DNA from: a virus
Strand: one strand, 5' to 3'
DNA length: 64,000 nucleotides
Virus genome (UHGV): UHGV-0310767
Shown: piece by piece, positions 1 to 60,960 of the stretch
Layout of the letters: each line of letters opens with the position of its first letter
How positions within the stretch are numbered: the first letter of the stretch is position 1
Position numbers and translations under genes: made by a program
The notes under the pieces: model-generated
What the model was told of the DNA's origin: nothing
The model's database searches: none
What the model saw: only the letters and a program-made list of their open reading frames with translations

Positions 1-3000
1 TAAATAGTAGTAATTTTCAGATTTTAGTTGCGGCAACATTGGATGCCGCTAATATACAAAAACAGTTAAACGCAATATCCAAAAAATATGGAACGATGAA
101 GATTAATTTAGATGTAGACAATACATCTTTAAATAATGCCACTAACTCATTAAATAATTATCAGCAAGGTTTAAAACAAACTAGTGAAGCGGCACAAAAT
201 ACATCTCAAAGCATTGGAGACATTATAGGTAAAGTAACCAAATTTGGGGGGGCTACTTTAATTATAAATAAATTTCGACAAGCAATTGTTGATGGATATG
301 GTGCAGTAAAAGAACTTGATGCTTCTGTAACAGAATATAGAAAAGTATCAGAACTTACAGATTCTCAAATGGGAGGTTTCATTGATACCGCCAGAGAATT
401 AGGTTTAACAGTGGCAAGAACAGCAGATGAAATGGTAGAAGCGGCTACAGAATTTAAAAAGATGGGTAATGATGATTCCACATCTTTACAGTTAGGTAGA
501 TTAGCTACTATGTTTCAGAATATTGCTGATGAAGCAATAAGTGCTGGTGATAGTGCTAGTTTTATTAACTCTCAGATGAAAGCATTTAATTTTACAGCTA
601 ATGAAGCTATTCATGTTTTGGATGCTGTTAATGAGGTAGCTAATAATTTTGCTGTTTCTTCTGGTGATATTTCTACAGCTTTACCCAAAGTTGCTAGTAC
701 AATGGCATTAGCTGGAAATAGTTTTGAGGAAACTATAGGATTACTTACGGCTGGTGCTGAAATAATTCCTAATCAGGCTTCCAGAATTGCTAGAGGTTTA
801 CGTTCTATCACTTTGAATCTTCAAGGTTTAAATGAGGATGGAGAGCAAGTTGCTGGAATGGCGGCTTCTATGCAGGAAGAATTTGATAAGTTAGGTATTT
901 CTTTGCTGGACAATCAGGGACAGATTAAAAGTACTTATCAGATTTTTAGCGAATTAGCAGAAATTTTCCCAAAATTAGATAAAAATACACAAACGTATTA
1001 TGCTAGTTTGATTGGCGGTAAAACTCAGGTAGACGTAGTAACAGCCATACTTAAAAACTTTGAAACTGCACTTAACGCTACAGATACAGCTATAAATTCT
1101 GTTGGTTCTGCCATGATAGAAAATGAGAAATATCTTGATTCTATTCAAGGTAAATTATCTGCTTTAAATTCTGAATTTGAGAAATTCTGGACAGAAGGAA
1201 TCAGTTCAGATATGGTAAAACAGATAGTTGAATTTGGAACAGGTGTTCTTAAATTAGTAAATGCTTTAGGTGGATTACCTACTATTCTTACAGCCGTAGT
1301 AGGAATTATAGCTACTTTAAAAGGCTATAACATAATAACTTCTTTAGGTAAAATGGGAAGTTCGTTAGCTAATGTTATAGGTTTAGTAGTTAGTTTAAGG
1401 AAAGATGGTTTTTCTTTAATTGAAATATTTACTGGCTTATCTTCTAGTGCTACATTAGCAAGTGTGGCTATTGGTGGAGTTGCGGCGGCCTTAACTATAG
1501 GTGTTGCGGCCTATTCTTATTATACTCAAGCACAAGCCAAAGCAAGAGAAGAAGCTTTAAAAGCCGCAGAAGATTTCGGCACAGAAGCCACTTCTTTAGC
1601 AGATTTACAGAAAAAGTATAATGAAATATGGACTTCTCAAGATGATGAAGAAACAAAAGCTACTAAATTAGCAGAAGTTAGAAAAACTTTAACTGACCAG
1701 TATGGGCTTGAAAAAGAACAATTGGATAAGTTAAATGAAAGTCGTGAAGCTGGAAATGCTTTATTAAACGAAGAAGCTTTTTCAAAAGCCGCAGAAGCTT
1801 ATGCAAAAAGTGTAGACGAAATACAGAAAGCACAAGAATATCTCCTTAATAATTCTATGCTTAATTATGGTGTAGATATAGGAAATAATTTAAGTGATGA
1901 AGTATTTGCTAAATTAGATAAAGCTTTTAAAGATGTATCTGAAAAAGCGCAAGGAATGATTGTAAATCTTAAAGGTACACCAGAAGAATTAGAAAAAGCT
2001 TTAGTAGAAGCTATCAATTATATGTCAGCTTTAGAGAATCCCACTCAAAATGAAATAAATTTATTAAATCGTTTTAAGAGTGATTTAAGAAGTTTATCGA
2101 AAGAAATTGATAGTTCTAATGAAGTTATAAGTAGAACACAGCAAGCTTATCTGCTTAATAACGATGCAGTTCAAACTTTCCTTAATTCCAGTTATCAAAC
2201 AAAGGAAGAAATGGAAGCGGCAAAACAAGTAGTGTTAGATAGTTTAACACCTCTTGATTCTTACCGTAAAGGTTTTGAAAATATTGTTAGTAGTGCGTTC
2301 CCAGAATGGAGCGAAAGTTCTAAAGAAAATGCAGAAGATTTAAGAGTTGAAATGAACAATGGTTCTGATGCCGCCGAGGAATATGCTAAAAAGATAAAAG
2401 AATTAGCAGGAAGTTTAAGTGAATGTCAAACTGCCTATGATACACTTACAGAGGTAGCAAAGGAATACAATGAAACTGGTAACTTAAATGTTGAAACTTT
2501 ATCGAAATTATTAAAGCTTAATCCAGAGTTTTACCAAGCTTTATCTATGCAAGAGGGAAAGCTGGTTGTCAATACTGAACTTCTTAACCAGATGGCTCAG
2601 GAGTACGCTACAAATGCGTACAGCGCAGTAACAGCGGCCCAAGGGGTTGATACCTTATCTACTTCGTTGGATGGAACTGCAACGGCAGGAATTGACGCTA
2701 CTCAGCGAATAACCGAAGCCGGGAACGCCGCTATAGAAGCAGGACAGAAAGCTTTAGAAGGTGCAAAAGGATTTAGGTCACTTATAGGAAGTATGGGGAC
2801 ATTTGTCAGTACTTTAAAAAGTGGTTTAACTGGTGATAATGGAGATGGAACAAAAGAGTATGGTCATGCTTTTGATGCTCAAGTTCAAGCTTATCAAAAG
2901 AAACAGCAAGATGATTTATTAGCCCATTTATTTGATGGGATTTCAATTGATACTAGTGGTGGAAAGAAAAAGGGTGGTGGCAAATCTGGTAAGGATAGTG

Positions 3001-4535
3001 CAGAGAAAGCCGCCAAAGAAGCCGCAAAAGCTTACAAAGAAGAATTTGAAAAACGTATCAGCGAAATTAAATTTAAGTTTGATATGGGAGATGTTACTGA
3101 ACTAGGATATTGGAAAGAAGTAGATAAAATAGTTCAGGAATTTTATGCTAATAATGAAGCTTATGCAGAAGAATATAGAGATTGGACAGCTAAGATACAA
3201 AAAGGAATGGTATCTGGAACTAAAGCAAACTTTGAATTAGAAAGGGATGCTTTAGACCATAAGTTAGCTATGGATTTGATTTCTCAAGAAACTTATTATA
3301 GAGAACTTGAGAAATTAAGACAAAAGTATTATGCACAGGATGCTATTTATGCGGCACAAAGTGAAGATATCGAAGAAGAAATATATGCTTTTAAGAAAAA
3401 GAAATTAAAAGATTTAGCAGAAGAACGTAAGAGACAGCGTAAAAAAGAATGGGATGAAGAAACAGATTGGTTAAATGAGCAGAAGTCACGTTATGAAACT
3501 GCTTTTAATTATATTGATTCTTTAGCCCAGAAAGAAATTGATGCTCTTGAAGAACAAAAGAAAGCTATTGAAGATAAATACAATGCAGAGATAGATAAAA
3601 TCAATGAAGCGCAAGATGCTTTAAATGATGAAATTGAATTGCAGGAAAAGTTAGAAGCTTTAGCCAAAGCTCAGAACACAAAGATTAGAGTTTATCGTGA
3701 AGGTGTAGGTTTTGTTTATGAAAATGACCAGTCTGCCGTAGATGAAGCCAAAGCCGCTCTTACACAGTATCAGAAAGAACAGGATACTAAGAAAGAGATT
3801 AAACGATTAGAAGATATTAGAGATGCTACAATCGAAAGTGTAGAGGAACAGATTGAGTATTGGGAAAAGTATAGGGATGAATGGAAAGACATGGTTAATT
3901 CCTATACAGAACAACAGAACAAACTTATTGCTGAACAGGTTTTAGGTATTTCACTTGAAGGTGAAAACTGGGAAAAACGTTTAGGAAATTTACAAGATTA
4001 CGTAGATAGATATAACAGCATTCTTTCTCAATTGAAACATAGAGGAAGTTATGATGATGATGATGATGATTGGGACGATGATGATTATGATTATGGTACT
4101 GGTGGAGGTGGTGGCTCTGCTGGTGGAGGTGGCACAATTGGCCCGTCTGACCATGCTGGAAGTGGTGGACATTGGGATTCCAGTGATTCATCACATGGCC
4201 CCGGTGTAGCCGCTAATGGAACAACGACAGGCCATGGTCTTACAATGGTAGGAGAAAAAGGTAGAGAATTAAGAGTTTTAGGAAACGGAGTAAACGAAGC
4301 TGACGGTATTGTTCCTAATCATTTGACTGAGAATCTTATGAAATTAGGACAATATTCACCTAGAGAATGGATTAATGCTCTTACACACAATCCTGGTAAT
4401 CAACAGTGTTCAACGCAGTATTCTTATGCGTTTGATAGTCTAGTATTACCTAATGTAACTAATGCAGATAGCTTTATTAGTGAATTAAAAAATATTAAAA
4501 ATCAGGCAATTCAGATGGGAGGAAGGAGGTTTTAA
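1..4535 (+). CDS. Tail tape measure protein, 5'-partial (the reading frame is open to the window start). Long coiled-coil alpha-helical protein with a C-terminal poly-Asp/poly-Gly low-complexity segment.
   Basis: 1498-aa ORF of TMP-like composition (A/E/K/L/Q-rich, coiled-coil heptads). Position immediately upstream of the tail/baseplate genes. No in-frame stop between nt 3 and 39, so it is probably truncated by the window edge. Confidence 0.8.
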   Translation, partial: NSSNFQILVAATLDAANIQKQLNAISKKYGTMKINLDVDNTSLNNATNSLNNYQQGLKQTSEAAQNTSQSIGDIIGKVTKFGGATLIINKFRQAIVDGYGAVKELDASVTEYRKVSELTDSQMGGFIDTARELGLTVARTADEMVEAATEFKKMGNDDSTSLQLGRLATMFQNIADEAISAGDSASFINSQMKAFNFTANEAIHVLDAVNEVANNFAVSSGDISTALPKVASTMALAGNSFEETIGLLTAGAEIIPNQASRIARGLRSITLNLQGLNEDGEQVAGMAASMQEEFDKLGISLLDNQGQIKSTYQIFSELAEIFPKLDKNTQTYYASLIGGKTQVDVVTAILKNFETALNATDTAINSVGSAMIENEKYLDSIQGKLSALNSEFEKFWTEGISSDMVKQIVEFGTGVLKLVNALGGLPTILTAVVGIIATLKGYNIITSLGKMGSSLANVIGLVVSLRKDGFSLIEIFTGLSSSATLASVAIGGVAAALTIGVAAYSYYTQAQAKAREEALKAAEDFGTEATSLADLQKKYNEIWTSQDDEETKATKLAEVRKTLTDQYGLEKEQLDKLNESREAGNALLNEEAFSKAAEAYAKSVDEIQKAQEYLLNNSMLNYGVDIGNNLSDEVFAKLDKAFKDVSEKAQGMIVNLKGTPEELEKALVEAINYMSALENPTQNEINLLNRFKSDLRSLSKEIDSSNEVISRTQQAYLLNNDAVQTFLNSSYQTKEEMEAAKQVVLDSLTPLDSYRKGFENIVSSAFPEWSESSKENAEDLRVEMNNGSDAAEEYAKKIKELAGSLSECQTAYDTLTEVAKEYNETGNLNVETLSKLLKLNPEFYQALSMQEGKLVVNTELLNQMAQEYATNAYSAVTAAQGVDTLSTSLDGTATAGIDATQRITEAGNAAIEAGQKALEGAKGFRSLIGSMGTFVSTLKSGLTGDNGDGTKEYGHAFDAQVQAYQKKQQDDLLAHLFDGISIDTSGGKKKGGGKSGKDSAEKAAKEAAKAYKEEFEKRISEIKFKFDMGDVTELGYWKEVDKIVQEFYANNEAYAEEYRDWTAKIQKGMVSGTKANFELERDALDHKLAMDLISQETYYRELEKLRQKYYAQDAIYAAQSEDIEEEIYAFKKKKLKDLAEERKRQRKKEWDEETDWLNEQKSRYETAFNYIDSLAQKEIDALEEQKKAIEDKYNAEIDKINEAQDALNDEIELQEKLEALAKAQNTKIRVYREGVGFVYENDQSAVDEAKAALTQYQKEQDTKKEIKRLEDIRDATIESVEEQIEYWEKYRDEWKDMVNSYTEQQNKLIAEQVLGISLEGENWEKRLGNLQDYVDRYNSILSQLKHRGSYDDDDDDWDDDDYDYGTGGGGGSAGGGGTIGPSDHAGSGGHWDSSDSSHGPGVAANGTTTGHGLTMVGEKGRELRVLGNGVNEADGIVPNHLTENLMKLGQYSPREWINALTHNPGNQQCSTQYSYAFDSLVLPNVTNADSFISELKNIKNQAIQMGGRRF

Positions 4536-4570: not shown

Positions 4571-4843
4571 ATGACAGGAAATTTTGATATAAATAAAGAA
4601 TTATTGGATGTAATGAGAATTATCGCAAGACAAGAAATAGAAAAATGTAATAGAGATATTACAAAAACTGCTAGAGTAATAGCGGTAAATACTGATAAAA
4701 CAGTTAAAATAGAAATGGATGGAAAACAATATGATAATATTCCTAATTATAATGGGACTACTTTAACAACTAATGATATTGTAAAAGTAACTTATCCTCA
4801 AGGACAGACAAGTAATATGTATATATCTGGGGGGGGCGTTTAA
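4571..4843 (+). CDS. Small tail-module protein (90 aa). Ends in GGGV, encoded by a G8 tract, and is possibly the N-terminal half of a protein fused with the next ORF.
   Basis: Good RBS (aaaggagtgagatatt ATG). ORF ends at the G8 tract 4829-4836. Confidence 0.5.
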   Translation: MTGNFDINKELLDVMRIIARQEIEKCNRDITKTARVIAVNTDKTVKIEMDGKQYDNIPNYNGTTLTTNDIVKVTYPQGQTSNMYISGGGV

Positions 4844-4848
4844 TAATA

Positions 4849-5097
4849 TTGGGTATAACTGATTATGGAATTTTGCAATTAAAATCAGAAAATTCAAATC
4901 CTAGTAGTCCAGAAGGTTCGCAAATTTCATTTCATGGAATGGGTGGAGATACAGGAAAAGGTCAAGATTATTTGTGTTTAGATGCTAATAATGGAGATAT
5001 AAGAATATTTGGTAATTTTGGAGGGGGAGATATTGTAAAAGTGTATGCTTTTACAAATGATGGGTTATATTTTGATGGCAAGAAAATAGGGCCTTAA
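4849..5097 (+). CDS. Small tail-module protein (82 aa) with no RBS of its own. Probably the continuation of 4571..4843 after a +1/-2 slip in the G8 tract.
   Basis: TTG start without an RBS. In frame with the upstream ORF if the G tract is 9 (or 6) long. Confidence 0.4.
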   Translation: MGITDYGILQLKSENSNPSSPEGSQISFHGMGGDTGKGQDYLCLDANNGDIRIFGNFGGGDIVKVYAFTNDGLYFDGKKIGP

Positions 5098-6264: not shown

Positions 6265-7018
6265 TTTCGTAGGTTACAACTTCGTACAAGATAGTAACGC
6301 CCTCGACCCATCACCTAGTAGTGTAAATAACATAACTAGCATTCAGTTACAGAATGGTATTTACGATTATTTTCATTTGACCAATAATGTAACAGCCGAA
6401 TATTCTCCTATTGAGCCTTTAGAATGGGCTTATTTGGATATTATCAATGCTAATTTTAATGGTAATATCAATGGTGGTAACGTTGAGTTCTTATTGGATT
6501 ATTTGACAGCTATCAAAGTAAAGAGAAGAATAAAAGGAACTTTCAACTGGGTAACTTTGAAAACAGTTCCAGTTAAAACATTTGATGATTTAAACTTCGT
6601 GTTTAGGGATTATCTTAACGGAAATTTTGTGGATTATGAGTATGCTTTGGTTCCAATTCTAAATGGGGCCGAAGGAGATTATATAACCAATAGTATTACC
6701 AGCCAATTTGCAGGAGTGTTCTTATGTGATAAGGATACTATATACAAATATTATGCTGGTGTTTCTTATGGTAGTGCAAAACGTGTGAAAAAAGTAGGAG
6801 TATTTGAAGCTTTTGGTAGTCAGTATCCTATTGTAGTATCAAACGCTTTAACGAATTATCATTCTGGTAGTGTAAGCGGAACGATTCTTCCTAAAGATTA
6901 TGATGAAACTAGAGCCTTGAATAGAATGGCAATTGTACAACAGGGTAAAGAATTAATTGACTTTATTACAAATAATAAAGCAAAAATTCTAAAAGACTTA
7001 ACATTATGTGTTGCATAA
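6248..7018 (+). CDS. Baseplate/tail structural protein (256 aa). Possibly exon 1 of an intron-interrupted gene.
   Basis: Overlapping start with the upstream gene (translational coupling). Followed by a 310-nt structured non-coding region, an endonuclease ORF, and a short in-frame-looking coding segment at 8205..8370. Confidence 0.5.
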   Translation: MERMFSFVGYNFVQDSNALDPSPSSVNNITSIQLQNGIYDYFHLTNNVTAEYSPIEPLEWAYLDIINANFNGNINGGNVEFLLDYLTAIKVKRRIKGTFNWVTLKTVPVKTFDDLNFVFRDYLNGNFVDYEYALVPILNGAEGDYITNSITSQFAGVFLCDKDTIYKYYAGVSYGSAKRVKKVGVFEAFGSQYPIVVSNALTNYHSGSVSGTILPKDYDETRALNRMAIVQQGKELIDFITNNKAKILKDLTLCVA

Positions 7019-7331
7019 TATAGGTCGCTTTCATAGTGATATGAAAGAAAAATAATATATTGAATTGCTGGAAACCCCTAAAGCCGCATGAACCACAACG
7101 TAAGTATGAAATAAGACTAAGCGTGATGGTGACGAAAGTAGAAAGAATCATGTGGATGGCATAAGGTTAAATCCTAAGTGCTAATATAAAATGGGCAATC
7201 AGCCGCCAAGCCTTGAATAGAGGAAGGTTCAACGACTATCCCGTAAGGGAGTACACTGCAAGCGATTGGCAGTGGAAGTGGTATACGTCTTATAATCTTG
7301 ACCAATACTATAAAAAGAAGGAGGTGAAAAA

Positions 7332-8093
7332 ATGGTGATAGATAATCAAATGGTTGAAATGAAATGGCATCCAAGAAATAAACAATATTATACAGATTTG
7401 GGTTATATCTACACGAAAATAGGTGATAAATTTGAAGTGAAAGTAGAACATTTAACTAAAGGAGCAAAATCTTTAGTAGATGTTCGTTGTGATTATTGTG
7501 GGAAAATAATTAAAGTAAAATACCAAAATTATATAAATAGATATAGTCCCACATTAAAAGATGCTTGCACTCAGTGTAAAACTAAGAAAGCTATAGATTC
7601 TAATTTAAATAGATATGGAGTTTCAAATGTTTTTGAATTAGAAGATATAAAAAGCAAAAGTAAAAATACATTTTTGGAGAAATATGGAGTAGACCATTAT
7701 TCTAAGTCTACTGATTTTAAAAATGTAGTTCCTAACAAAATAAGAAAAACTTTGTATAGAAATGGTACAGTTCCTACTTCCAGTCAACAATTAAATATAT
7801 ATGATTTGTTGAAAACTAAATATAAAGAATGTTTCATTAATTATCCTTGTGGTTCATGCTCTTTAGGTTGTTTAGTGAAGGAAAAAGGTGTATCTATTGA
7901 TATAGAATATGATGGCAATTATTGGCATCAAGATAAACAAAAAGATAGAAAAAGAGATGAATTTATTAAGTCTCAAGGTTATAAAATATTAAGAATAAAA
8001 AGTGATAGAAATATTCCCACTTTAAAACAGTTAGTAAAAGCTATTAATTGTTTGGTCAAGAGCAATCATAGCTATAAGGAAATAAGATTATAA
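7332..8093 (+). CDS. Putative homing endonuclease, either free-standing or intron-encoded. N-terminal CxxC...CxxC zinc ribbon plus a C-terminal nuclease-like domain (IEYDGNYWH ... RDEFIKSQGYKILRI).
   Basis: Two Cys pairs (CDYCG, CTQCK). The C-terminal motif resembles Vsr/PD-(D/E)XK-type homing endonucleases. Inserted into the structural module between coding segments. Strong RBS aagaaggaggtgaaaaa ATG. Confidence 0.4.
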   Translation: MVIDNQMVEMKWHPRNKQYYTDLGYIYTKIGDKFEVKVEHLTKGAKSLVDVRCDYCGKIIKVKYQNYINRYSPTLKDACTQCKTKKAIDSNLNRYGVSNVFELEDIKSKSKNTFLEKYGVDHYSKSTDFKNVVPNKIRKTLYRNGTVPTSSQQLNIYDLLKTKYKECFINYPCGSCSLGCLVKEKGVSIDIEYDGNYWHQDKQKDRKRDEFIKSQGYKILRIKSDRNIPTLKQLVKAINCLVKSNHSYKEIRL

Positions 8094-8388
8094 GACGAAG
8101 ATATAGTCTGTGCTTTATAGAAATATAAAGATGCACGTAATGGTGCTGACATAATGTAGCGAATTATGTTGAACAAAAACAGGGAATGGAAATGTATGGT
8201 TGATTATGCCAATTGGAGAGCCAACTACTAGTTATAATAGTAGCTGGGGTATGGGTAAAATTGATGTAAACTTTGAGTATGTAGAGGTAGGAGATGCCAA
8301 TTCAGAAAGTGATTTAATGTCACTGGGATTGATTGAACCATCGGTTGATACTTCTACAATTAATAAATAAAGAAAGGAGTAGATTAAT

Positions 8389-9815: not shown

Positions 9816-10562
9816 ATGAGTGTATTATATCCATCACTTTCTAATACAACGTTTCCAAATACTATTCAAAGTTTTGTAACTTTCTTGAATATTACTCCTA
9901 CTGATGCTTCACTGATTCAAAAATATCAGCTTGCGGTACAGTCAGGAAATATGGAAGAAGCAGAAAATATATTTGGACAAATACAGAATGGTAATCAGAA
10001 AATTATTGATGCTACTAAATTAAATACTTTGGTAGACACTACAGTTGCATTGGAAAACTTTTTTAAAACAGATGTATTTCCTTACATTGATGTTAAGCAG
10101 AATGAATGGCAGAATATTATCAATCTGTTTAATTATAAAGGAGTTTACAGCCCTGTTACTACCTATGTTAAAAATAATTTTGTAACTTTTACTTATAATG
10201 GTGTAGAATATGTATATATTGCTACTGCAAATCCACCTGTAGGAGCAGACCCTACTAATGCCGCTTATTGGAGAAATCTTTCTATTCGTGGTGAAAAGGG
10301 AGACCCAGGAGTAGGAATGTCATTCCTTTATGCATGGGATTCTACGGTTCATTATTCTGTACAAAATGTAGTAACTTATGGTAACTATGTATGGGGTGCG
10401 ACCAAAGAGAATCAGAATCAGGCCCCTTTTGAGGATTCAGAGTATTGGTCTAACATAGGTACGATTAGACCCCGTGTAATCCCTATTACGAGTTCTTACC
10501 CGGCTTTACAGGAGACAGGAGACTTATGGTTCCGCATTTTGACTGATGGGGGGGGTATATAA
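9816..10562 (+). CDS. Tail structural protein (248 aa). The C-terminal GGG is encoded by an in-frame G8 tract.
   Basis: RBS aaggaggtaagaa ATG. G8 at 10548-10555, just before the stop. Confidence 0.45.
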   Translation: MSVLYPSLSNTTFPNTIQSFVTFLNITPTDASLIQKYQLAVQSGNMEEAENIFGQIQNGNQKIIDATKLNTLVDTTVALENFFKTDVFPYIDVKQNEWQNIINLFNYKGVYSPVTTYVKNNFVTFTYNGVEYVYIATANPPVGADPTNAAYWRNLSIRGEKGDPGVGMSFLYAWDSTVHYSVQNVVTYGNYVWGATKENQNQAPFEDSEYWSNIGTIRPRVIPITSSYPALQETGDLWFRILTDGGGI

Positions 10563-14264: not shown

Positions 14265-15133
14265 ATGAGTGTGTTAAACAGATTCCCAACTGGGGGGGCA
14301 GTAATGATGGTTTGACAGCCACCCCAGGAGAAGTTTTAAGTGGTTACAAATTCGTAGGGGCCAGTACAGACGATGTTCAAGTGGGTACTTTACAACTTAC
14401 TGGTAATGCCGCAACGAACCATGTACTTAGTGGTACTACGTTTTATACAAACAACCCCAAGAATAAGCTTACTGGTTATATGGCAATCAATAACATCAGA
14501 GGATTTTCTGTAAGTCTTATAAGTGGCAGAAATGTAACGGTTCAATGGACTAATCCTGTACAAACTGCTGGATATCCTTACAGTGGGGTATATGTAAAAT
14601 ACCAAACAGGTTCCTATCCCACTCCTTCCACTGGTACACAGGCGTACAAGGGAGTAGGAAGCAGTGGGGCAAGTGGGGCCGCTTCTACTGTTTTCAGAAA
14701 TGGTGTAGTTTTATGTAGTGCAGATGGTGGTAAATCCAATACCAGTAAAACTTATGATGGTGGCTCTGGCGGCTCTGGTGGCGGCGGTGGTGGTCAGAGA
14801 GATGGTAATATTCCTGGACAATGGGGTGGTTCTAATGGTGCTGGTGGAGGTAGTGTAGCGGCTAGTGGTAGTGGCGGTAGAGGTCAAGGATTTACTACTA
14901 CTGCTTTTAGAGAAAACTGGGGAACTGTTTACTCAGGTGGTGGCGGCGGTGCTGGTGCTAATACTGGCTCTGGTGGCGGTGGAAACGCTGGCGGTGGAGG
15001 TGGTGGAGGCGCTTATGGTGGTGGCGGCTGGGGTTCAGCTAATACAGGTGGTGGGGGAGGTGGTCAATACTGGCCCAACGGAACCAACGGTGGAAATGGA
15101 GGTTCTGGTGTAATATTGATAAGAATAAAATAA
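14265..15133 (+). CDS. Glycine-rich tail-fibre paralog 1. The conserved N-terminus MSVLNRFPTGG is followed by a G7 tract (14292-14298) that puts the body (tracked as ORF 14312..15133) out of frame; G8 would restore it.
   Basis: ATG at 14265 with RBS aaaggaaaatagtttt. The N-terminal peptide matches the paralogs at 17631 and 48467. The body is homologous to 15174, 17631 and 47324 and ends in the family C-terminus GSGVILIRIK. Confidence 0.65.
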
Positions 15134-15173: not shown

Positions 15174-16526
15174 ATGGCTATAATGAATAACTTTGCTTCT
15201 GGTGGTGCGCCTACAGATGAATTGACGGCAACCCCGGCAGAAGTAATGAAAGGTTATAAATTTCTAGGTGCTGGTTCTGATGAAGAACAAACTGGTACAT
15301 TGGAATTAACTGGAAATGCGGCTGTTAATCATGTTTTACAAGGTGAAACATTTTATAATACAAATCCTAAGAACAAACTTACAGGTACTATGACTGTAAA
15401 TAGTATATTTTCTTTTAAGGCGCAAGTAGTCAGTGGGCGGCAGATTTTGTTTACATGGCAAAATCCGACTACTGCGACAGGAAAGCCGTTCAGCGGAGTA
15501 TGTATAAATTATTCTACTTCTGGATATCCTGGTACGGGAGGTACACGATTATATACAGGAGTAGGAAGCAATAGTGCTTCTGGTGGTACATCTCAAGCTT
15601 ATTTAAATTTACCTAATCTTAATACAGCTTATTATTTTAGTTGTTATTCTTTTGTGAATATTAATAATAATGCAGATAATAAGTATGGTACAGTATTCAA
15701 TGCTAGTGCAACTACAGGAAGAAACATAAGTTTAACTTTTACTCAAAGTCAAGACTATACAATTCCAGGAGGATTTACATTGTTAGATGTATTCCTTGTA
15801 GGAGGTGGAAATAGTGGTATAAGAGGTAACGGAAGAGCTAATAATTGGAAATATGCAGGAGATGGAGGTGGCGGTGGTTATACCAAAACGCAAAGAAATA
15901 TTGGTATAGCTGGCGGTCAAGTTTTAAGATTTAATGTAGGTGGTGGTGGTGGATTTGTTGCAGGTTTAGCATACAATCAATCTGGACAAAGAACTTTTAA
16001 TGTAGGAGGGGTTTCAAGTGTAGTAAGAAGTGGAAGTGTTTTAGCTACTGTTAATGGAGGAAATGATTTTAATGGTGGCTCTGGTGGCGGCGCATATGGT
16101 GAACAAGTATATTTTGGAGAGAATGATTTTAAACACTATGTAGGAAATGGAGGTTCTAATGGTGGAAATGGTGGTTCTACTTTAATAAATAGAAATGGAA
16201 CTACAAGACCAGGAGGTGCAGGACAGAGATTTAGTACAAGAGCCTGGGATGGAACAGGTGCACAATACTCTGCTGGTGGCGGTGGTGGTGCACAACCAGG
16301 AGCAAGATTAGCTGGTTCTGGCGGCTCTGGTGGTAGCCCAGGTGGAGGTAAAGGTGGTAATGCTTGGGCTGGTGGAACAAATGGAGAAAATGGACAAAAC
16401 GGTTCTGCAAATACTGGCTCTGGCGGCGGTGGTGGCGGCGGTTGTGCCTATTATCAAGGTCGTTCTGGTGGTAGTGGTGGAGGCGGTGCTGGTGGTTCTG
16501 GTATCATTTTAGCCATTCTTCATTAA
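15174..16526 (+). CDS. Glycine-rich tail-fibre paralog 2. Intact, with no homopolymer at the N-terminus (MAIMNNFASGGAP).
   Basis: 450 aa. Conserved N-terminal domain (LTATPxEVxxGYKFxG ... TGNAxxNHV ... NPK ... SGR ... PYSGV). Long Gly-rich C-terminal part ending in GSGIILAILH. Confidence 0.7.
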   Translation: MAIMNNFASGGAPTDELTATPAEVMKGYKFLGAGSDEEQTGTLELTGNAAVNHVLQGETFYNTNPKNKLTGTMTVNSIFSFKAQVVSGRQILFTWQNPTTATGKPFSGVCINYSTSGYPGTGGTRLYTGVGSNSASGGTSQAYLNLPNLNTAYYFSCYSFVNINNNADNKYGTVFNASATTGRNISLTFTQSQDYTIPGGFTLLDVFLVGGGNSGIRGNGRANNWKYAGDGGGGGYTKTQRNIGIAGGQVLRFNVGGGGGFVAGLAYNQSGQRTFNVGGVSSVVRSGSVLATVNGGNDFNGGSGGGAYGEQVYFGENDFKHYVGNGGSNGGNGGSTLINRNGTTRPGGAGQRFSTRAWDGTGAQYSAGGGGGAQPGARLAGSGGSGGSPGGGKGGNAWAGGTNGENGQNGSANTGSGGGGGGGCAYYQGRSGGSGGGGAGGSGIILAILH

Positions 16527-16564: not shown

Positions 16565-17284
16565 ATGATTGTACATCAGGTTTATGCGTATATTTGGAAT
16601 GAAACTGTACAGAATGTTGTAGTATGTGATAATTACCAGTTAGCGAATGATATCGCCAAAGGTTGTTATGGTAATGATGCTTTTGCTGTAGATTGCTTAC
16701 AATATCCTTGTCAAATTGGAGATAAATATGTAGATGGGAGATTCTATAGAGTTCCAGACGCTACTGAAAATGGAGTGTTGATAGCAAAACCTATGGATAC
16801 TACACCTGTTGATGTTAGTAAATTAGTGGAAATTGAATATGTTTCAACACAGGAACAGGAAGTTGCTACTTTAAAAGCACAGAATGCTATATTAGCTACT
16901 GCTACTTCGTTTATGATTAACACCTTTACAGATGAACAAGCTATTATGGTAGCTGACCTTTATCCTTTATGGTCTGGTGAAAGTGTAAAATATGAAGTTG
17001 GAGAAAGAATAAAGGATGAAAATTATATCCTTTATAAAGTAATTACTGCTCATACGTCACAGCCAGATTGGAAACCTTCTGTATCTCCTTCATTATTTGC
17101 AAAAGTATTAGTGGAAAATCCTAATGAAGTTACTGAGTGGAAACAGCCTGATAGCACTAATGGTTATGATAAAGACATAGTAGTACTTCATAATGGAAAG
17201 GAGTGGAAGTCCCTTGTAAACGGTAATATATGGGAACCAGGAGTTGTAGGAACAGAAACTTTATGGGAAGAAGTAATAAAATAG
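16565..17284 (+). CDS. Hypothetical protein within the tail-fibre cluster (239 aa). Possibly a fibre assembly or accessory protein.
   Basis: RBS gaaaggaaaagaaaa ATG. Located between fibre paralogs 2 and 3. Confidence 0.4.
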   Translation: MIVHQVYAYIWNETVQNVVVCDNYQLANDIAKGCYGNDAFAVDCLQYPCQIGDKYVDGRFYRVPDATENGVLIAKPMDTTPVDVSKLVEIEYVSTQEQEVATLKAQNAILATATSFMINTFTDEQAIMVADLYPLWSGESVKYEVGERIKDENYILYKVITAHTSQPDWKPSVSPSLFAKVLVENPNEVTEWKQPDSTNGYDKDIVVLHNGKEWKSLVNGNIWEPGVVGTETLWEEVIK

Positions 17285-17389
17285 ACATTAAACTACAAAT
17301 TCTACAAAGTAAATGTATATTATACCCTAAAAAGGGTATAATATAAATGTAACCATAAAAAATGATTTCAAGAAAGAGAGGAATTTATA

Positions 17390-17553
17390 ATGGCAGTTTT
17401 AAAAGGTCACAGTGACAAGAGGACACCGGAACAGAGACATGATGATGCAATTAATATGCGTGAGGATGTAAAGCCCACTGCTCTTAACACAGAAAAGAAT
17501 TACGTGACTACTGGCCCAGGTACAGGCAAGGAAGATGAACGTAACGATTGATA
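17390..17553 (+). CDS. Small hypothetical protein (54 aa). Not in the ORF track.
   Basis: ATG preceded by agagaggaatttataATG. Followed by a hairpin terminator at 17561-17590. Confidence 0.3.
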
Positions 17554-17630
17554 ATTGAAAAAGGGAAGGGTAAAACCTTCCCTTTTTACATATTTTTTAA
17601 TATGAATAAAAGGAAAAGAGGGAAATAAAA

Positions 17631-18905: not shown

Positions 18906-19763
18906 ATGGCAATACTTAATCGTTTTCCTACTGGGGGGAGGCTTATCTTCTGAGGTCACAGCAACTAACAATCAGCTTTTAACAGGGTATACAGCTATAA
19001 CGGCTAACTCTGATGATGAACCAATTGAAGGAACTATGCCTAATTGTGGTACACAGAATTATAGTTTACCTATAAATGGAAGTTATACTATCCCAGAAGG
19101 TTATCATTCTGGCGAAGGTAAGGTAACTCAATCTGTTACTACTATGAAGAGTTCTAATATAACACCTAATACATCTGTAGTAACAATTCCCACCAATCAG
19201 AAATATATTGATGGGAATTTTACTATTCCTGCATTTGCTTTACCATCTGCTTCTATTTTGAAAAAAAAGGAGCAACATATACTTTATATGGAAAAAAGGT
19301 TACAGGAGAATTTGAGGGCTTCGTTCCTAGTGTTACAGATTTATATTACAAAGGAAATAATATAGCTAATTTCAGTTTTAAGGTGGCATATGGATATTCT
19401 GTACTAGGCTCTGTTAAATTTGAAACTGCTCAAATGATAACTACATCAGATAGAAATGGAACTGCTGGCCCTTTATGTAGTGGAAGAAGTTATAATTTAA
19501 CTCCTTATAATTCAATTAATATTGAAGTAAATCCTCCAACTCCATCTATTTCTTTATCTACAGTTTATAGGGGTGTAGTATTTCATTATGGGAGTGATTT
19601 AAATACAAGAGATGCATTTATAAATTCAACAAAACCATCAACTTATGTATTTAGTTTTGATATATCAGGAATAAATGCAACTAAATGGTTTGCGTTTATG
19701 TTTTTTTATAAAGAAAATACTAGTGCCTATAAAGGAATTATAAATCGTATTTGGTTCAGTTAA
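18906..19763 (+). CDS. Tail-fibre-like protein 4. It has the same FPTGG N-terminal leader and a different, non-Gly-rich body. It is currently broken into three ORFs by a G6 tract (18933-18938) and an A8 tract (19261-19268).
   Basis: ATG 18906 with RBS gaaagggaataatt. The frame reconnects to ORF 19036..19365 with G5 or G8. ORF 19036..19365 reconnects to 19383..19763 with A9, giving a plausible continuous sequence ...ILKKKGATYTLYGKKVTGEFEGF... Confidence 0.5.
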
Positions 19764-20716: not shown

Positions 20717-20903
20717 ATGGTAACTATGAATAAGTGGGGGGGCAAATGGTACTGCCGAAGCAGAATTTTGCGGTTTAAGTACTGACAATAAACCCGTAGA
20801 CGAAGGAATTCCTAATGGTTCATCATTTTTTGAGATGGATACATTTAAGGTATATTTCTTTAATAAAATGACAAAAACATGGATAACTGAGGGAGGTGTT
20901 TAA
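20717..20903 (+). CDS. Small protein downstream of the lysin. A G7 tract at 20736-20742 gives a 22-aa truncation; G6 (or G9) would give a 62-aa protein (..ANGTAEAEFCGLSTDNKPVDEGIPNGSSFFEMDTFKVYFFNKMTKTWITEGGV).
   Basis: Strong RBS ggaggtaaaaaat ATG. The alternative frame is open to 20903 and abuts the next gene. Confidence 0.35.
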
Positions 20904-44246: not shown

Positions 44247-44699
44247 TTATAAAGTCTTATTAATTCTTTTGTGTCTTTTACCAATTCTTCTTTTTCCTTT
44301 TTTTTCTGTTAATTCTCTTTGTTTTTTTCTTTTATTTTCATAGTAAGATTTTATTTTTGAATTATAATTAGAAATAGCTAATTTCATTGCATTTTCAGAA
44401 ACTTTATCTTCTATAAAAAATCTATCTTTAGGATAATAATTAGCTATACAGTTATTAACTTCAAAATCATAAAGAGAATTTAAAGTATAATATATTCCAT
44501 ATTTTTCTCTAATACATAATTGTTCTTTTGTTAATTCTGAATCCCCATTTCTTTTATAATAAATATAATGAGAATTGATATAAACAATAGGAAATTTTTC
44601 TAATGCAAAATATATACAATCTCCATGTTTATTAAGTGTTAATTTATAAATGCGTTTAAATTTACTTAAATCTTTTCTATTGGGTACAAATACTGCCAT
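44247..44699 (-). CDS. Hypothetical protein, paralog A1 (150 aa; MAVFVPNRKDLSKFKRIYKLTL...).
   Basis: Clear paralog of 46830..47312, sharing N-terminal MAVF(V/I)P..K....SKFK.IY.LTLEK....F.LEKFPI.Y.NS..IY.K.NG and a basic Lys-rich C-terminus. Confidence 0.5.
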   Translation of the reverse strand: MAVFVPNRKDLSKFKRIYKLTLNKHGDCIYFALEKFPIVYINSHYIYYKRNGDSELTKEQLCIREKYGIYYTLNSLYDFEVNNCIANYYPKDRFFIEDKVSENAMKLAISNYNSKIKSYYENKRKKQRELTEKKGKRRIGKRHKRINKTL

Positions 44700-47323: not shown

Positions 47324-48467
47324 TTATTTTAATCTTATTAAAACAACACCTGAACCTCCTGTAGAAATATATCCTTGATAATTTCCACCAGCACCACCGC
47401 CCGTATTAGTTCCTCCGTTACCAGCTTGCCAACTGCCATTAGAACCTCCACCGCCGCCCCCGGCACCGCCGCCACCAGGGCTTCCTCCACTTCTTCCAAA
47501 ACCACCACCACCACCACCGCCTGAATATATAGTTCCATTAGATTCCCCAAACGCTCTTGTAGTAGAACCTTGACCTAGGCCACCACCACCAGAACCACCT
47601 TGTCTACCTGCTGAATTAAATCTAGGGTTTCCATCTCCACCATTAGCACTACATAATGTACTACTTCCTTTTTTTACAGTGGTAGTTCCTCCTTTATTAC
47701 CTCCATATCCACCTCCACCAATAGTTATAGATAACACATCTTTTTCAGCTACAGTTATATTATTAACAGTTTTGGTATATCCTGCACCGCCACCACCATT
47801 AGCATAATAACTAGAATCCCCATATTCACTACCACCACCTCCGCCAACACAGAAAACATCTATTTTAGAATATCCTGCTGGAATTGTGTAATTAGAAGTT
47901 GCTTTGATAGTAATTATCTGAGAACTACCTGTATTTACTGTAGCTTTTAATTGTGTTCCTAAGATTTCCCCATTGGATGTTACACAATAAGAGTAAACAA
48001 TGAAGTAATACATAGTATCAAGAGAAGGAAGGGATAAAGCTGTTGTAGATATCCCTCCACTCTCTTGTGATGTTCCTACTCCCTTGTACCCTTCTATACC
48101 TGTATCTGGTGTAGGATAGGAACCTGTTTGATATCGGATATATACTCCACTATAAGGTCTACCTAGTTCTTCAATAGGATTAGTCCATTGGACTGTAATA
48201 TTTCTACCACTAGAAACAGACAAAATTAAATTGCTTACATTTCCTGGCTCTAGGGTGCCTGTTAGTGAATTTTTGGGGTCTACAGTGTAAAACGTAGTAC
48301 CTTTGGTTACATGGTTTTTTACAGCATCACCTGTCAACTGTAAGGAACCAGTCTCTACATCGTCTGTACTGGCCCCTACGAATTTGTAACCATCCATAAC
48401 AACGGATGAATCGGCTGTCAAGCTATCAGGTATGCCCCCCAGTTGGGAAGCGGTTTAGTATTGGCAT
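47324..48467 (-). CDS. Glycine-rich tail-fibre paralog 5 on the minus strand inside the replication module. Its N-terminus MPILNRFPTGG is followed by a G6 tract (+ strand C6 at 48435-48440) that places the body (ORF 47324..48421) out of frame; G8 would restore it.
   Basis: ATG at 48467 with RBS (aaaggagattaag ATG). About 70-75% nucleotide similarity to 17631..18866, including the identical 26-mer tattacttcattgtttactcttattg. Ends in GSGVVLIRLK. Confidence 0.6.
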
Positions 48468-51686: not shown

Positions 51687-51739
51687 CTTTCCACCTCCTT
51701 AATAATTATTATATCATTTCATTTATCTTTTGTCAATAT

Positions 51740-51970
51740 AAAGTTAATGGATTCTTATAAGAACTAAACCAGTTCCACCACTACCTCCCATTCCTTCGGC
51801 TCTACCACCACTGGATGAAGTACGAGAGCCGCCACCGCCCCCACCTCCACCGCCGCCTGTGTTAGCCGCGCCAGCAGTTCCAGAAGAAGCCCCACTACCA
51901 CTACTTCCTGTACCACCTCTACCGCCACCGCCAGAGCCACCGGTTGACCAGTATAGCTTTTATATGACGG
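51740..51970 (-). pseudogene. Remnant of a glycine-rich tail-fibre paralog: C-terminal fragment only, frameshifted.
   Basis: The minus strand encodes ...WSTGGSGGGGRGGTGSSGSGASSGTAGAANTGGGGGGGGGSRTSSSGGRAEGMGGSGGTGLVLIRIH*, matching the family C-terminus (GSGVILIRIK). An upstream stop and frame change mean no intact N-terminal domain. Confidence 0.6.
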
Positions 51971-52141
51971 TGAACTTCCAGCATTGAAGTCAAATCCGAT
52001 TATTGAAGGAACCCTCATGTTCCACACTACTTTACAGCAGTATTCTCCTTATACCAGGTACAGAGGGTGACTTAATCAGGAATTTTCAACTTCTGCCCAG
52101 CATAGATGATAGTACCCTTGATGCCGTTCAGGTTGGCAATC

Positions 52142-53526
52142 TCAGGCCAGCGCTTTCTGTTTCAAAGCAGTAACCTTGTTCTTTGTCGGTATCATTTGCG
52201 AAAACACCTTCATAAGAACTTGTTTTACAATACTGTTACCAGCTTGCTTATAGAGTTGGGTGTTGCTGTTCACAGAAGCAGCTTTCCAGTAATCTTCATC
52301 TGTGAAACCCATCAACCTCCAACACTCAAGTGGTGTCAGCTTACGAATACGAATGAGATACAATTCTCCGTTAATCTCATAGATGAATTTGTGAAACTGC
52401 TCTGGAATTTCGTTTGCAAGTCTGCTTTCTAACAGAAAGTTATCCTTCTGTACAGTAGTTATAGTGTTGCAAACACCATCTAATCTAGGTTCGGCTTCTC
52501 TGTGTTCGTTATAGCCGTGGTGTACTTCTCCGGCTTCATACGCTTTTCTAAGACGTTTTCCTTTTCTTGTAGAACTTGAACCACAGTTTGATGTTAGAGT
52601 GGTCATTGTTTTCTGGTCTCTATGAAACCCAATTCTCTTACATTCAATGGCTGCATTGCTACCGTAGTTGCTGAGTCCCTTGTAATCTCTGGACAAGAGT
52701 GTGGCTGCAACATCTGTTTGTCTTGCATCAGGTGTTCTGGCTTCATCGGAACTTCCGCAGTTACGCAAGATGATACCATCCCCCCCTGTTCAAGGAACGG
52801 AACTATCTTCCCAGAGAATACCAGCTTATCAACAAGGTCTTTGGCTTTTTCGGATGTAAGATAGTATTTGTCCTCAACCTGAGGTTCAAGGAAATCAGCC
52901 ATAACAGTTGTGAGAGGTTCAATCTCCGGGAAAATGAACTCATAATCCCCTAAAATGCTTACTGCAATACAGCGATTTCTTGATTGGGGTATTCCATAGT
53001 TCATTGCGTTAAGGTCTTGCCAGAAAGTCTTATATCCTCTTGACTCAAGGTAATTAAGCCAGTTTTCAAAGTCTGGCATATTCTTCTTAGAGTGAACTTG
53101 AGGAACATTTTCCATAACCAGAACTTGCGGTAATTGCTCAGTTTCGTTAAGCAAACGCTCAACTTCCCACAAAAGACCAGAGCGTGTACCACTGTCTTTT
53201 CTCATACCTTTTCCCTTGCCAGCCACAGACAAATCTTGACAAGGAAAAGAATATATAAGCAAGTAAGTATAACGGTCTGTGTCAACAATACCAAGGTCTG
53301 CCCCTGATATTTTTGTAATATCCATCGTTGGAAAGTTGGTTCCATGAATTGCGTTGTAGCTTGCAACCGGGTACTTATCGAACTCAACCACACGGTAGTG
53401 TTCAAAATCTACCCCTATGTCACGCAATGCCATAGCTTGACTACCTACACCTGCGAACAGTTCAATAAGTCGAATAGGCTTATCAATCTCATATTTCATT
53501 AGTGCATCCTCCTCCTTCTTCCTCAC
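52142..53526 (-). CDS. DNA (cytosine-5)-methyltransferase, split into two overlapping ORFs by a G7 tract (+ strand C7 at 52780-52786). G6 (or G9) gives a full-length enzyme.
   Basis: N-terminal ORF: LFAGVGS (motif I), PCQDLSVAG (motif IV), ENV (VI), QSRNRCIAV (VIII). C-terminal ORF: TLLSRDYKG (TLTAR-like) and LYKQAGNSIV (motif X). The frames join as ...FLEQGGDGIILRNCGSS with one G fewer. Confidence 0.75.
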
Positions 53527-53693
53527 ACCCCATAAAGGGGTGTGATTTTAGATTTTGAAAGCGGGACGCACACCGGCAGAGAGAGAAGCGGTTTAGTACT
53601 GCCATAATTTAACCAATTCCTTTCTTTATTTTTTTGATTGACAAGTTACATTTTATAAAAATAATCCCTCCACCAAACGGCAGAGAGATTAAT

Positions 53694-56876: not shown

Positions 56877-56888
56877 ATATTTCCTTTC

Positions 56889-59316: not shown

Positions 59317-59454
59317 TTTAGCATATATGACTGAATCCCTTATTGGGCGATTTGTTTTTCAACAATTGATTTTACATTCTTTTTTAAGGAGCCAGGATAT
59401 CCTTTTGCGCGCGCGGCTCCGGACTCCTTTCTTAGTTTTCAAAAAAATCTCAGT

Positions 59455-59907
59455 TTACTTGATAAACACCAGCCATCTGGTTTTTCCTCTTTGGTCCCCT
59501 AAAAGCGGCTTTTTAGCAAAACATTTTAATACTTCTGTTAATTTTATCTGGTTCTCACTCCATTTAAAAATCAGCAGCCCATCCGATTCTAAAACTCTCA
59601 TGCACTCATTAAAACCTTGTTTCAGATACTCTGGCCAAGCCGCTGGCAGAATACCGTACTTACTGTCCAACCAGCTACCGGTTCCGGCATGGATAAGGTG
59701 CGGTGGGTCAAACACAACCACCTTAAATGTATTGTCATGATACGGCATTTCCCGAAAATCCATTTGCACATCTGGTTTAATCAGCAGTGTGCGCCCATCA
59801 CATAGTGTCGTTTCCAGCTCCCTGTTGTCGGCATATATTACCTCTGGATTCTGCCTGTCGAAATAAAACATTCGGCTGCCGCAACATGCATCTAAAATTC
59901 TTTTCAT
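59455..59907 (-). CDS. Small DNA methyltransferase (amino-MTase, DPPH motif; 150 aa) in a GC-rich island.
   Basis: ILDACCGSRMF (motif I-like) and VVFDPPHL (DPPY/H motif IV). Local GC is clearly higher than the surroundings (e.g. gcgcgcgcggctccggactcc). Confidence 0.55.
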   Translation of the reverse strand: MKRILDACCGSRMFYFDRQNPEVIYADNRELETTLCDGRTLLIKPDVQMDFREMPYHDNTFKVVVFDPPHLIHAGTGSWLDSKYGILPAAWPEYLKQGFNECMRVLESDGLLIFKWSENQIKLTEVLKCFAKKPLLGDQRGKTRWLVFIK

Positions 59908-60026
59908 TATTCACCTCTCCTAAATTTTAATTTTGTATCTCTTACAATAAAGAGTATATCACATACTTTATGATAAGTCAATCACTTTTTCAAAAAATTT
60001 TTTAATTTATTTTTTCATGTTCCGAA

Positions 60027-60676: not shown

Positions 60677-60960
60677 TTATATATCAACAATTATTTTAAA
60701 ACCTATTATGCCATTCTCTACATAATAAGGAATAATAGAATTATACTCTGTGGTACATATTACCCTTAACATACATTCGGCATAATCTTTACCTGTCATA
60801 TCACAAATTCTTCCTTTGTATAAAGTTTCACCCCCCCACATACATTAAGATGAAGCCCTCTTGTGTCTAAATTAGATGAATAACTTTTGTTCTTGTGAAT
60901 AAAGACATAAGTATTACTATCTAATTTATTTAATATATCCACTAAAAATATACTTTCCAT
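60677..60960 (-). CDS. Small protein gene containing a G7 tract (+ strand C7 at 60831-60837). The current frame stops after 57 aa; G8 gives a 94-aa protein (...HLNVCGGGETLYKGRICDMTGKDYAECMLRVICTTEY...).
   Basis: ATG at 60960 with RBS aaagaaaggaaaattt ATG. The alternative frame is open to 60677. Confidence 0.4.

Follow-up and report, generated by a model that had tools for sequence, protein, structure and literature searches.

Guanine tracts as candidate slipped-strand contingency loci in accessory genes of an Enterocloster phage

In a 64,000-nt stretch of the virus genome UHGV-0310767 (hereafter the window), eight accessory genes carry a G homopolymer on the coding strand, and we place the probability that these tracts are slipped-strand contingency loci at roughly 0.7. 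By sequence similarity, the window is a portion of a ~106-kb virulent PMBT24-like siphovirus whose host is Enterocloster bolteae: its first 24 kb align with Enterocloster phage PMBT24 at 96% identity over 73% of the query and with the CB457/CB473 phages of E. bolteae at ~90% identity, and its closest DNA relatives within the phage collection are all Enterocloster phages. PMBT24 itself is a ~100-kb virulent siphovirus from sewage (PMC11035940). In the proposed mechanism, slipped-strand mispairing during phage DNA replication would add or remove G bases in these tracts (GGG GGG GG, read as Gly-Gly-Gly), each change of one or two bases would shift the downstream open reading frame (ORF) into or out of frame, and a phage population would be a mixture of genotypes, each expressing another subset of the gated genes. 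The core set would be a family of glycine-rich tail-tip paralogs, four tract-bearing and one tract-free in the window, in which the tract would encode a disordered N-terminal linker, so that in-frame changes by a single Gly would be tolerated; the other tracts would gate a C5 methyltransferase, a 175-aa gene and two small genes.

Guanine tracts and reading frames in the window

The tracts had been listed in an earlier note on the window, and all 11 entries, ten homopolymers of G or C and one A8, are exact in both coordinates and length. Below, each tract is named by its first position and is called ON when its length leaves the gene in frame and OFF when the gene is out of frame. Seven of the ten G/C tracts break frame (4829, 14292, 18933, 20736, 48435, 52780 and 60831), not six as first counted; those at 246, 10548 and 17658 are in frame, and the A8 at 19261 also interrupts an ORF, as had been said. 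All ten G/C tracts are runs of G on the coding strand, where the productive frame reads Gly-Gly or Gly-Gly-Gly. Their supposed concentration at the 5' ends of genes holds for five of them (the four paralogs, 27 nt past the ATG, and the small gene at 20717) and fails for 246, which lies 208 nt into a 4.5-kb gene, for 10548, which occupies the last four codons of its gene, and for 4829, 52780 and 60831, all mid-gene. Lengthening to 8 or 9, which had been offered as the repair for every case, works arithmetically at all broken tracts; at 60831 and at the A8, however, relatives are in frame at the shorter C5 and A6, and these two look like +2 expansions, in the window, of an in-frame C5 and A6, not like shortened G8 or G9 tracts. 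Changes of one or two units toggle between full-length and truncated products, of 289 and 16 aa for paralog 1, 381 and 13 aa for paralog 4, and 461 and 307 aa for the methylase, and one repair restores ORFs of 289-461 codons.

We compared the number of homopolymers with expectations from analytic order-0, order-1 and extrapolated models, a comparison that the earlier note had proposed. An excess is present for G/C runs of at least 7 nt (8 seen against ~1.5 expected, ~5-fold, P ~1e-4 to 2e-4) and of at least 8 nt (3 against 0.33) and absent for runs of at least 6 nt (10 against ~7 under the first-order model, not significant). G run lengths are bimodal, with 64, 8, 1, 3 and 3 runs at lengths 4 to 8, respectively. 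A/T runs are depleted, with 3 of at least 8 nt against 16-28 expected and none of at least 9 nt against 6-10; PMBT24 and CB457P2 show the same pattern as the window. As an internal control, the long ORFs of the window contain 222 Gly-Gly dipeptides, plus 25 stretches of 4-7 Gly residues, among which a G run longer than 5 nt is found at the flagged tracts only, and GGG accounts for 10.7% of Gly codons. Because other Gly runs avoid long G runs and GGG is rare, the tracts are not a by-product of glycine-rich coding; as at contingency loci, ORF homopolymers of ~7 nt or more stand above the compositional expectation.

Tract length, selection and competing explanations

Tract lengths were followed through ~40 independent assemblies of PMBT24-like Enterocloster phages, drawn from 6 isolate genomes, 9 IMG/VR loci, 16 metagenome loci and ~20 loci from exact-protein look-up (cited below by name or L number). 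Conservation of the tracts themselves in related phages, a check proposed with the original list, was borne out, the same tracts standing at orthologous sites with lengths of 5-10. The 5' tract of the paralogs was found in 37 instances, 30 of them uninterrupted (length 6 in eight, 7 in seven, 8 in five, 9 in nine and 10 in one) and seven recoded or interrupted (GGTGGTG, GGGGGAGGG, GGGGGAGGT and GGTGGGGGC). Six of the 30 uninterrupted tracts were in frame, compared with six of the seven recoded or interrupted ones (Fisher P = 0.002). The G7 of the tape measure gene and the G8 of a core fibre gene were in frame in 6/6 tract-bearing assemblies, compared with 18/53 accessory tracts (P = 0.003). 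Thus, while the comparative evidence supports the view that hypermutable G tracts are kept in fibre-type genes, a methyltransferase and small genes, that view does not extend to 246 and 10548 as switches, their length being invariant in every assembly.

Pairwise counts of isolated indels across diverged genomes were noisy owing to alignment artefacts, and near-identical pairs were more informative. Between the window and genomes 99.5-99.9% identical to it, changes in tract length are nearly the sole intragenic frameshifting differences. L059 differs over 4.8 kb by 3 mismatches and the methylase tract; L037 (99.6% identical over 3.2 kb) differs by 9 mismatches, by a single 3-nt indel that keeps the frame and by the 14292 tract, which is G8 (ON) there and makes the sole frameshifting difference. 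L055, L051 and L054 differ from the window at the 52780 and 60831 tracts, L054 additionally at 48435, and their remaining differences are mostly in intergenic A/T runs. Two tracts also distinguish PMBT24 from L011, a pair sharing 99.3% identity: G10 against G9 at one and G7 against G9 at the other. Orthologous sites are therefore polymorphic in length between near-identical genomes, and we infer that switching would be frequent and reversible within a lineage.

To assess selection, dN/dS was estimated by the Nei-Gojobori method over the N-terminal 178 codons, which are not glycine-rich. Pairs of OFF alleles gave values of 0.05-0.34, in the range found for ON alleles; PMBT24 and CB457P2, both OFF at C9, gave 0.16 at a dS of 0.66, and the paralog 3 type, which is never ON, gave 0.17-0.29 at dS 0.05-0.44. 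These ratios point to purifying selection despite frequent OFF states, and judged by them the OFF genes are not pseudogenes.

The lengths themselves recur between assemblies. The window is 100% identical, tracts included, to ERZ27304110 k141_83189 (a MEGAHIT-style ENA contig of 106 kb), to JGI contig 3300045988 (106 kb) and to Logan contigs of SRR2565985, in stretches of 7-23 kb that jointly span all tracts downstream of the tape measure gene; these three short-read assemblies were produced with different software, their underlying reads possibly being shared. CB457P2 and CB473P2, one phage assembled twice, agree at every tract, with 2 mismatches and 0 indels over 99.9 kb. PMBT24 was sequenced on an Illumina MiSeq (258,014 read pairs, 2x251; PMC11035940). 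At an Illumina depth of ~600x, its out-of-frame tracts include a G10, for which 8 or 11 would be in frame, and a C9, for which 8 would be, besides G7 and C6; because some of these exceed the in-frame length, undercalling cannot explain them. Uncompensated intragenic frameshifting differences between the window and PMBT24 fall only at G/C tracts and at two A/T 8-mers, and none of the ~180 A/T runs of 6-7 nt breaks a gene. Furthermore, identical OFF lengths reappear in independent samples (C6 at 48435, n = 5; G8 at 4829, n = 2; G7 in the methylase, n = 2).

The alternative that survives best, though we consider it unlikely, is that the tracts are neutral hot spots, that is, slippage-prone G runs in dispensable, redundant and slowly decaying genes, not retained as switches. 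Much of what supports it also weighs against contingency switching: only 20% of uninterrupted paralog tracts (6/30) are in frame, two paralog types were never seen in frame (0/9 and 0/8, neither differing significantly from one third), and truncated remnants of one paralog are present in PMBT24, CB457P1 and L028; with these remnants and the doubly broken paralog 3 of the window, some copies may be decaying. Neutrality would likewise accommodate the frameshift outside the tract in paralog 4 of L051, the existence of a tract-free, constitutive family member, and the recoded 'locked' alleles, from which the tract appears unnecessary for function. It is harder to reconcile with OFF alleles that retain dN/dS of 0.05-0.3 at dS up to 0.66 and regain their 289-461 codons through a single repair, with tracts that persist at orthologous sites though GGG is rare and avoided in other Gly runs, with the enrichment of G/C runs while A/T runs are purged, and with a G8 ON length conserved across paralogs. 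Further points count against switching as such. Coverage is just 2-6x in several metagenomic contigs; three expansions in the window (60831 +2, 19261 +2 and 44298 +1) are absent from siblings; and consensus tract lengths are stable between repeat assemblies of the same phage, so switching must be too slow to blur a consensus. The receptor-binding role of the paralogs is a putative one, suggested by fold similarity and gene position, and Pfam and PHROGs gave no family match for the 175-aa, 62-aa and 94-aa tract genes.

We consider it highly improbable that slippage of RNA polymerase or of the ribosome expresses the out-of-frame alleles, with tract length setting the amount of protein. Polymerase slippage on homopolymers is documented, chiefly for A/T runs of at least 9 nt, the majority of alleles, though out of frame, remain under purifying selection, and the paralog tracts lie at the extreme 5' ends of their genes; however, alleles depart from the ON length of 8 in both directions, by one or two bases (lengths 6-10), which no single fixed signal corrects, the tract sequences have neither a conserved stimulatory structure nor an X XXY YYZ slippery heptamer, and in-frame and locked alleles exist. 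Programmed frameshifting of the tail chaperone G/GT type, in which slippery length is fixed and both frames are used in a set ratio, does not fit either, since orthologous sites range in length from 5 to 10 and some alleles are in frame or recoded. Least probable of all is an artefact in which every true tract is in frame and the lengths are nanopore undercalls or Illumina poly-G errors: although long homopolymers are error-prone on all sequencing platforms, some contigs have the low coverage given above, and lengthening to 8 or 9 mends every broken tract of the window, this reading is opposed by the agreement of three short-read assemblies and of both assemblies of one isolate, by tracts above ON length in the high-coverage Illumina genome of PMBT24, by the in-frame tracts of essential genes set against those of accessory genes, by the recurrent OFF lengths, by the G8 tracts at 10548 and 17658 and the G7 at 246, which are in frame in the window, and by the intact A/T runs, so that the systematic nanopore-type undercalling which the earlier note had held equally plausible finds no support in the short-read and PMBT24 evidence.

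Contingency switching is thus the reading we prefer. A more far-reaching version, to which we give about even odds, is a 'phage phasome' with a portable 5' poly-G cassette, a shuffled repertoire of at least four glycine-rich tail adhesins (some in the replication module), C5 and Dam methylases likewise gated by poly-G, and additional small genes; it would offer up to ~2^8 states for bet-hedging in host range and against restriction, with the cassette serving as the recombination joint at which paralogs are gained and lost. If true, this would be the first case of such a system among phages that infect Gram-positive gut commensals.

Gated genes and their surroundings

The four paralog tracts share a 5' cassette composed of a ribosome-binding site, the ATG plus 27 nt and then Gn, ON at G8 (Table 1). 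The 27 nt encode M-x-[IV]-L-N-[RH]-F-P-T, and the upstream sequences diverge past ~30 nt.

Table 1 Features of the window, with tract lengths as found and lengths that leave the gene in frame
Feature	Coordinates	Strand	Product	Tract in the window	ON length	Remarks
Paralog 1	14265-15133	+	289 aa, repaired	G7 at 14292-14298, OFF	G8	
Paralog 2	17631-18866	+	411 aa	G8 at 17658-17665, ON		
Paralog 3	18906-19763	+	285 aa, repaired	G6 at 18933-18938; A8 at 19261-19268	G8 or G5; A6 or A9	different C-terminal domain; two disruptions
Paralog 4	47324-48467	-	381 aa, repaired	C6 at 48435-48440, OFF	8	replication module
Fifth family member	15174-16526	+	450 aa	none		N-terminus TCT GGT GGT GCG; constitutive
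C5-cytosine DNA methyltransferase	52142-53526	-	452-461 aa, repaired	C7 at 52780-52786, splits gene	8	
175-aa gene	4571-5097	+	175 aa	G8 at 4829-4836, OFF	G9	adjoins tape measure gene
Small gene	20717-20903	+	~62 aa	G7 at 20736-20742, OFF	G9	after lysin gene
94-aa gene	60677-60960	-	94 aa	C7 at 60831-60837, splits gene	C5 or C8	
Tape measure gene	39-4535	+		G7 at 246-252, in frame		FGGA; not a switch
Tail-fibre-like gene	9816-10562	+	248 aa	G8 at 10548-10555, in frame		last codons (DGGGI, then stop)
Gene with extra A8	44247-44699	-		A8 at 44298-44305, frame-changing		near 3' end; unlisted in the earlier note

The paralogs have a conserved N-terminal region of ~90 residues, an FN3 domain and, at the C terminus, a domain rich in glycine that ends in GSG..LIR.K. 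Matches to the Pfam family PF21722 (Gly_rich_2) reach E = 1e-12 to 1e-13, with 2.4e-13 for paralog 4; the 411-aa and 381-aa paralogs score 47.7 and 51.1 bits, respectively, against a gathering cutoff of 24.3, and the 289-aa and 285-aa paralogs score below it. An AlphaFold2 model of the 411-aa protein, the sole ON copy among the four tract-bearing paralogs of the window, has a pLDDT of 89.5, and only the tract-encoded residues 8-10 fall below 50. The fold matches Bxb1 gp33/gp29 (PDB 9D93) and the Pam3 fibre (gp24, PDB 7YPX), whose glycine-rich domain has been described as a host-recognition domain (PMC9608196), and the genes lie in the tail module. The fold and gene position suggest that the paralogs may be alternative receptor-binding or host-recognition proteins, which would give the phage a means of host-range bet-hedging.

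The fifth, tract-free family member is 44% identical to the 411-aa paralog (E = 3e-71), its orthologue in L044 matches PF21722, and at the position equivalent to the tract it encodes Ser-Gly-Gly as TCT GGT GGT. More than 1,200 relatives make up the wider family, in which distant members retain the N-terminal Gly cluster; a relative at 51% identity encodes the TGGG motif as ACT GGT GGT GGT, and since such a distant relative lacks a homopolymer at the Gly cluster, the homopolymer is derived within this clade. A scan of the paralog N-terminus against 185,579 reference genomes gave no match, and a protein search finds distant family members in Enterocloster and Clostridium.

The individual paralogs differ in the states observed. 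At the paralog 1 tract, the recoded allele GGTGGTG, an ON state, is present in PMBT24, L011 and L043. The tract of paralog 3 is G6, G8, G9 or G10 in relatives and in frame in 0/9, and at the site of its A-run PMBT24 and L050 have A6; once both G6 and A8 are repaired, the copy in the window yields a complete 285-aa protein. An alternative start for this never-ON type was considered and rejected, the productive frame having no canonical start codon. Relatives carry 6 (PMBT24, L028, L035 and L051), 7 (CB457P1 and L034) or 9 (L027) bases at the paralog 4 tract, and the in-frame length is absent from all relatives examined. In L051, a sibling 99.5% identical to the window, paralog 4 (16853-17743) has an extra 1-nt deletion at a C4 run (~48275 in the window) outside the tract, so non-tract frameshifts accrue in some copies. 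Just upstream of paralog 2 (~17557-17590) is a terminator-like hairpin with a T run after it (GAAAAAGGGAAGGGTAAAACCTTCCCTTTTT), and a similar hairpin precedes the paralog at 78352 in PMBT24; the paralogs may be separate transcription units.

Cassette content varies between genomes. PMBT24 is without the segment between the 17658 and 18933 cassettes and L044 is without paralog 3. A slot of the replication module, between a YorH-like gene and the neighbour of RecA, holds a tract-gated paralog in PMBT24 (76957-78439) and CB457P2 (71537-73112) and a tract-gated methylase in the window (51687-53693) instead, and it appears to be a variable hot spot with a tract on both alternative cargoes. Variation of this sort suggests recombination at the cassettes.

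The methylase matches PF00145 at E = 1.1e-56 over model positions 2-322 of 324, a match that spans the tract and requires C7 to become C8. The tract is G8 on the coding strand and the gene intact in L034/L054, L039/L057, L051, L055 and L059, and G7 in L058. Neither a nuclease domain nor a restriction enzyme gene was found among the neighbours of the methylase. In CB457P2 a Dam-type methylase is split by C8, the CB473P1 copy being intact with C7. By analogy with phage DNA modification elsewhere, ON and OFF states of the methylase might trade protection from restriction enzymes against methylation-dependent restriction. PMBT24 also has a C7 (84374-84380; 4375-4381 in L003) near the 3' end of an annotated 'Dmt methyltransferase', which encodes 175 aa with C7 and 214-215 aa with C6 or C9; the window is without this gene, 0.5 kb at 59380-59914 standing for ~1.6 kb. 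Just right of the window end (~35-1470 in L051/L052) is a phage gene for a GmrSD_N (DUF262) protein, from a family to which modification-dependent restriction enzymes also belong, and this protein may be relevant to the gating of DNA methylation.

Among the smaller tract genes, the 175-aa gene is split by its G8 into ORFs of 90 and 82 aa; G9 leaves it intact in CB457P2, CB457P1, CB473P3, L011/L041 and L040, and L043 also has G8. It occurs with two alternative C-terminal halves, both starting exactly at the tract. The small gene at 20717 has a GGAGG ribosome-binding site 7 nt 5' of its start. Its tract is G9 (ON) in CB473P1, G8 in CB457P2 and CB473P3, and G7 in L016; CB457P1 carries GGGGAGGGG, is locked ON and has the gene annotated as a coding sequence (CDS), and a sister allele type, ON at G8, occurs with G7, G8 and G9. 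In PMBT24, L051, L054 and L055 the 94-aa gene has C5 and is intact at 93 aa, CB457P1, L008 and L009 have GGAGG, and C7 is seen in the window only. The further A8 at 44298 leaves its gene with 150 aa in the window; PMBT24, with A7, encodes 178 aa, and L051 also has A7. Two of the three A/T 8-mers of the window (19261 and 44298) thus alter the reading frame relative to siblings.

At the two tracts that are in frame throughout, 246 is G7 in PMBT24 and GGTGCGG or GGAGCGG in the CB phages, and 10548 is G8 in the window, PMBT24, CB457P2 and L011 and GGGGAGGG in CB457P1, L014 and L043. The 248-aa gene that ends at 10548 matches a PHROG tail fibre (E = 1.7e-29). Its fusion to the 1087-aa fibre gene through the tract was considered and discarded: the two share a frame with a stop codon between them, and a +1 or -1 shift appends merely 7 or 51 unrelated residues.

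On the plus strand, the tape measure gene is followed by baseplate and fibre genes and the lysin gene, after which replication and nucleotide-metabolism genes occupy the minus strand of the window; GC content is 32%, and GC skew inverts near 23-24 kb. Relative to PMBT24, a ~1.2-kb insertion at 6993-8183 splits a 309-aa gene of the baseplate region and carries an endonuclease-like ORF (7332-8093, DUF7487/DUF559). Within it, ~200 nt (7060-7269) match part of an Alicyclobacillus phage that bears no annotation, and a 42-nt portion of these matches an Aeromonas phage region annotated as DNA polymerase with a putative intron. The insertion resembles a mobile intron that carries a homing endonuclease, and Rfam at the gathering threshold gave no match for it. 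Two more insertions (34792-36188 and 37305-38164) interrupt what is an uninterrupted 4-kb DNA polymerase III alpha gene in PMBT24; each holds one ORF, the corresponding positions in the CB phages are annotated as I-HmuI-type HNH endonucleases, and the insertions are probably introns or inteins. Over the whole window, a tRNA search and Rfam at the gathering threshold returned no match. CB457P1 (OP172753.1) contains a 51-nt T run, probably an assembly or genome-end artefact.

Relation to known systems

We found no reports of such tracts in phages of Enterocloster or other gut clostridia, and the PMBT24 paper (PMC11035940) mentions neither homopolymers nor frameshifts. If confirmed, the tracts would carry phage homopolymer phase variation over from Campylobacter phages and coliphages to phages that are virulent on a Gram-positive human gut commensal, in a family that supplies many natural ON, OFF and locked alleles. 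Gene callers split or miss tract genes, and in the annotations of PMBT24 and the CB phages the CDSs at the tracts are divided or missing. Tract state may bear on the host range and methylation that a phage stock shows. For E. bolteae phages considered as tools, a single 'clonal' lysate may be functionally heterogeneous. There is also a possible tie between phage tail-protein repertoires and phage-borne methylases on one side and the surface and restriction diversity of gut clostridia on the other.

Bacterial contingency loci and phasevarions in Campylobacter, Helicobacter, Haemophilus and Neisseria place polyG/C tracts in ORFs for surface interaction and restriction-modification, which are turned ON and OFF by slipped-strand mispairing, and interrupted 'locked' alleles occur there too. 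The tracts of the Enterocloster phages resemble these in being intragenic polyG/C with locked alleles and differ in that the genome is viral. Unlike phasevarions, they involve orphan C5 and Dam-type methylases, not Type I or III mod genes, and no regulatory role is implied.

Phages are also known to switch tropism, by the invertible G and C segments of Mu and P1 and by the diversity-generating retroelements of BPP-1, as these are outlined in PMC12823448. Going by that outline, the outcome proposed here is the same, one genome giving progeny with alternative tail-fibre or adhesin specificities; the means would be homopolymer frameshifting instead of site-specific inversion or mutagenic retrohoming. 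No invertase or reverse transcriptase linked to the tract genes was found in family scans, which covered only some ORFs. With Pam3 gp24 and Bxb1 gp33 (the 'tail wing brush') and gp29, the paralogs share the Gly_rich_2 domain and a place among tail-module genes; their N-terminal domain and FN3 insertion differ, and the known examples are not reported to be homopolymer-gated.

At the contingency loci of T2 and T4, slippage at homopolymers moves genes reversibly out of frame, a form of bet-hedging against the defences of the host (Gomez, Barrick & Waters 2025 preprint, PMC12633550). The DNA-modification gene agt of T2 toggles between two restriction threats (PMC12633550), the same logic as that proposed for the C5 methylase of the window. 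The T2/T4 loci are A runs that mostly occur about as often as chance would give, and the tail-fibre genes of coliphages hold fewer such repeats than expected (PMC12633550); the runs of the Enterocloster phages, in contrast, are G, exceed expectation, cluster in tail-protein paralogs and, in the consensus, are often OFF. PolyG tracts have also been noted in a BPP-1 methylase gene and in a PB1-like baseplate gene (PMC12633550).

The closest likeness is to Fletchervirus, phages of Campylobacter (Sorensen et al. 2021, Cell Rep 35:109214), which, in the summary given in PMC12633550, carry polyG tracts of 7-11 in ORFs that include receptor-binding protein genes, length changes switching expression and creating subpopulations. 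As far as that summary goes, both have several intragenic G runs in an AT-rich phage genome. The present phage differs in its Gram-positive gut clostridial host and in being an apparently unrelated ~100-kb siphovirus, in a 5' cassette common to a glycine-rich paralog family with one copy in the replication module, and in the gating of DNA methylases as well, its switching being proposed from sequence comparison. Contingency switching of this kind is already known in phages, from Fletchervirus, T2 and T4, and on the best-supported reading the Enterocloster tracts add to it.

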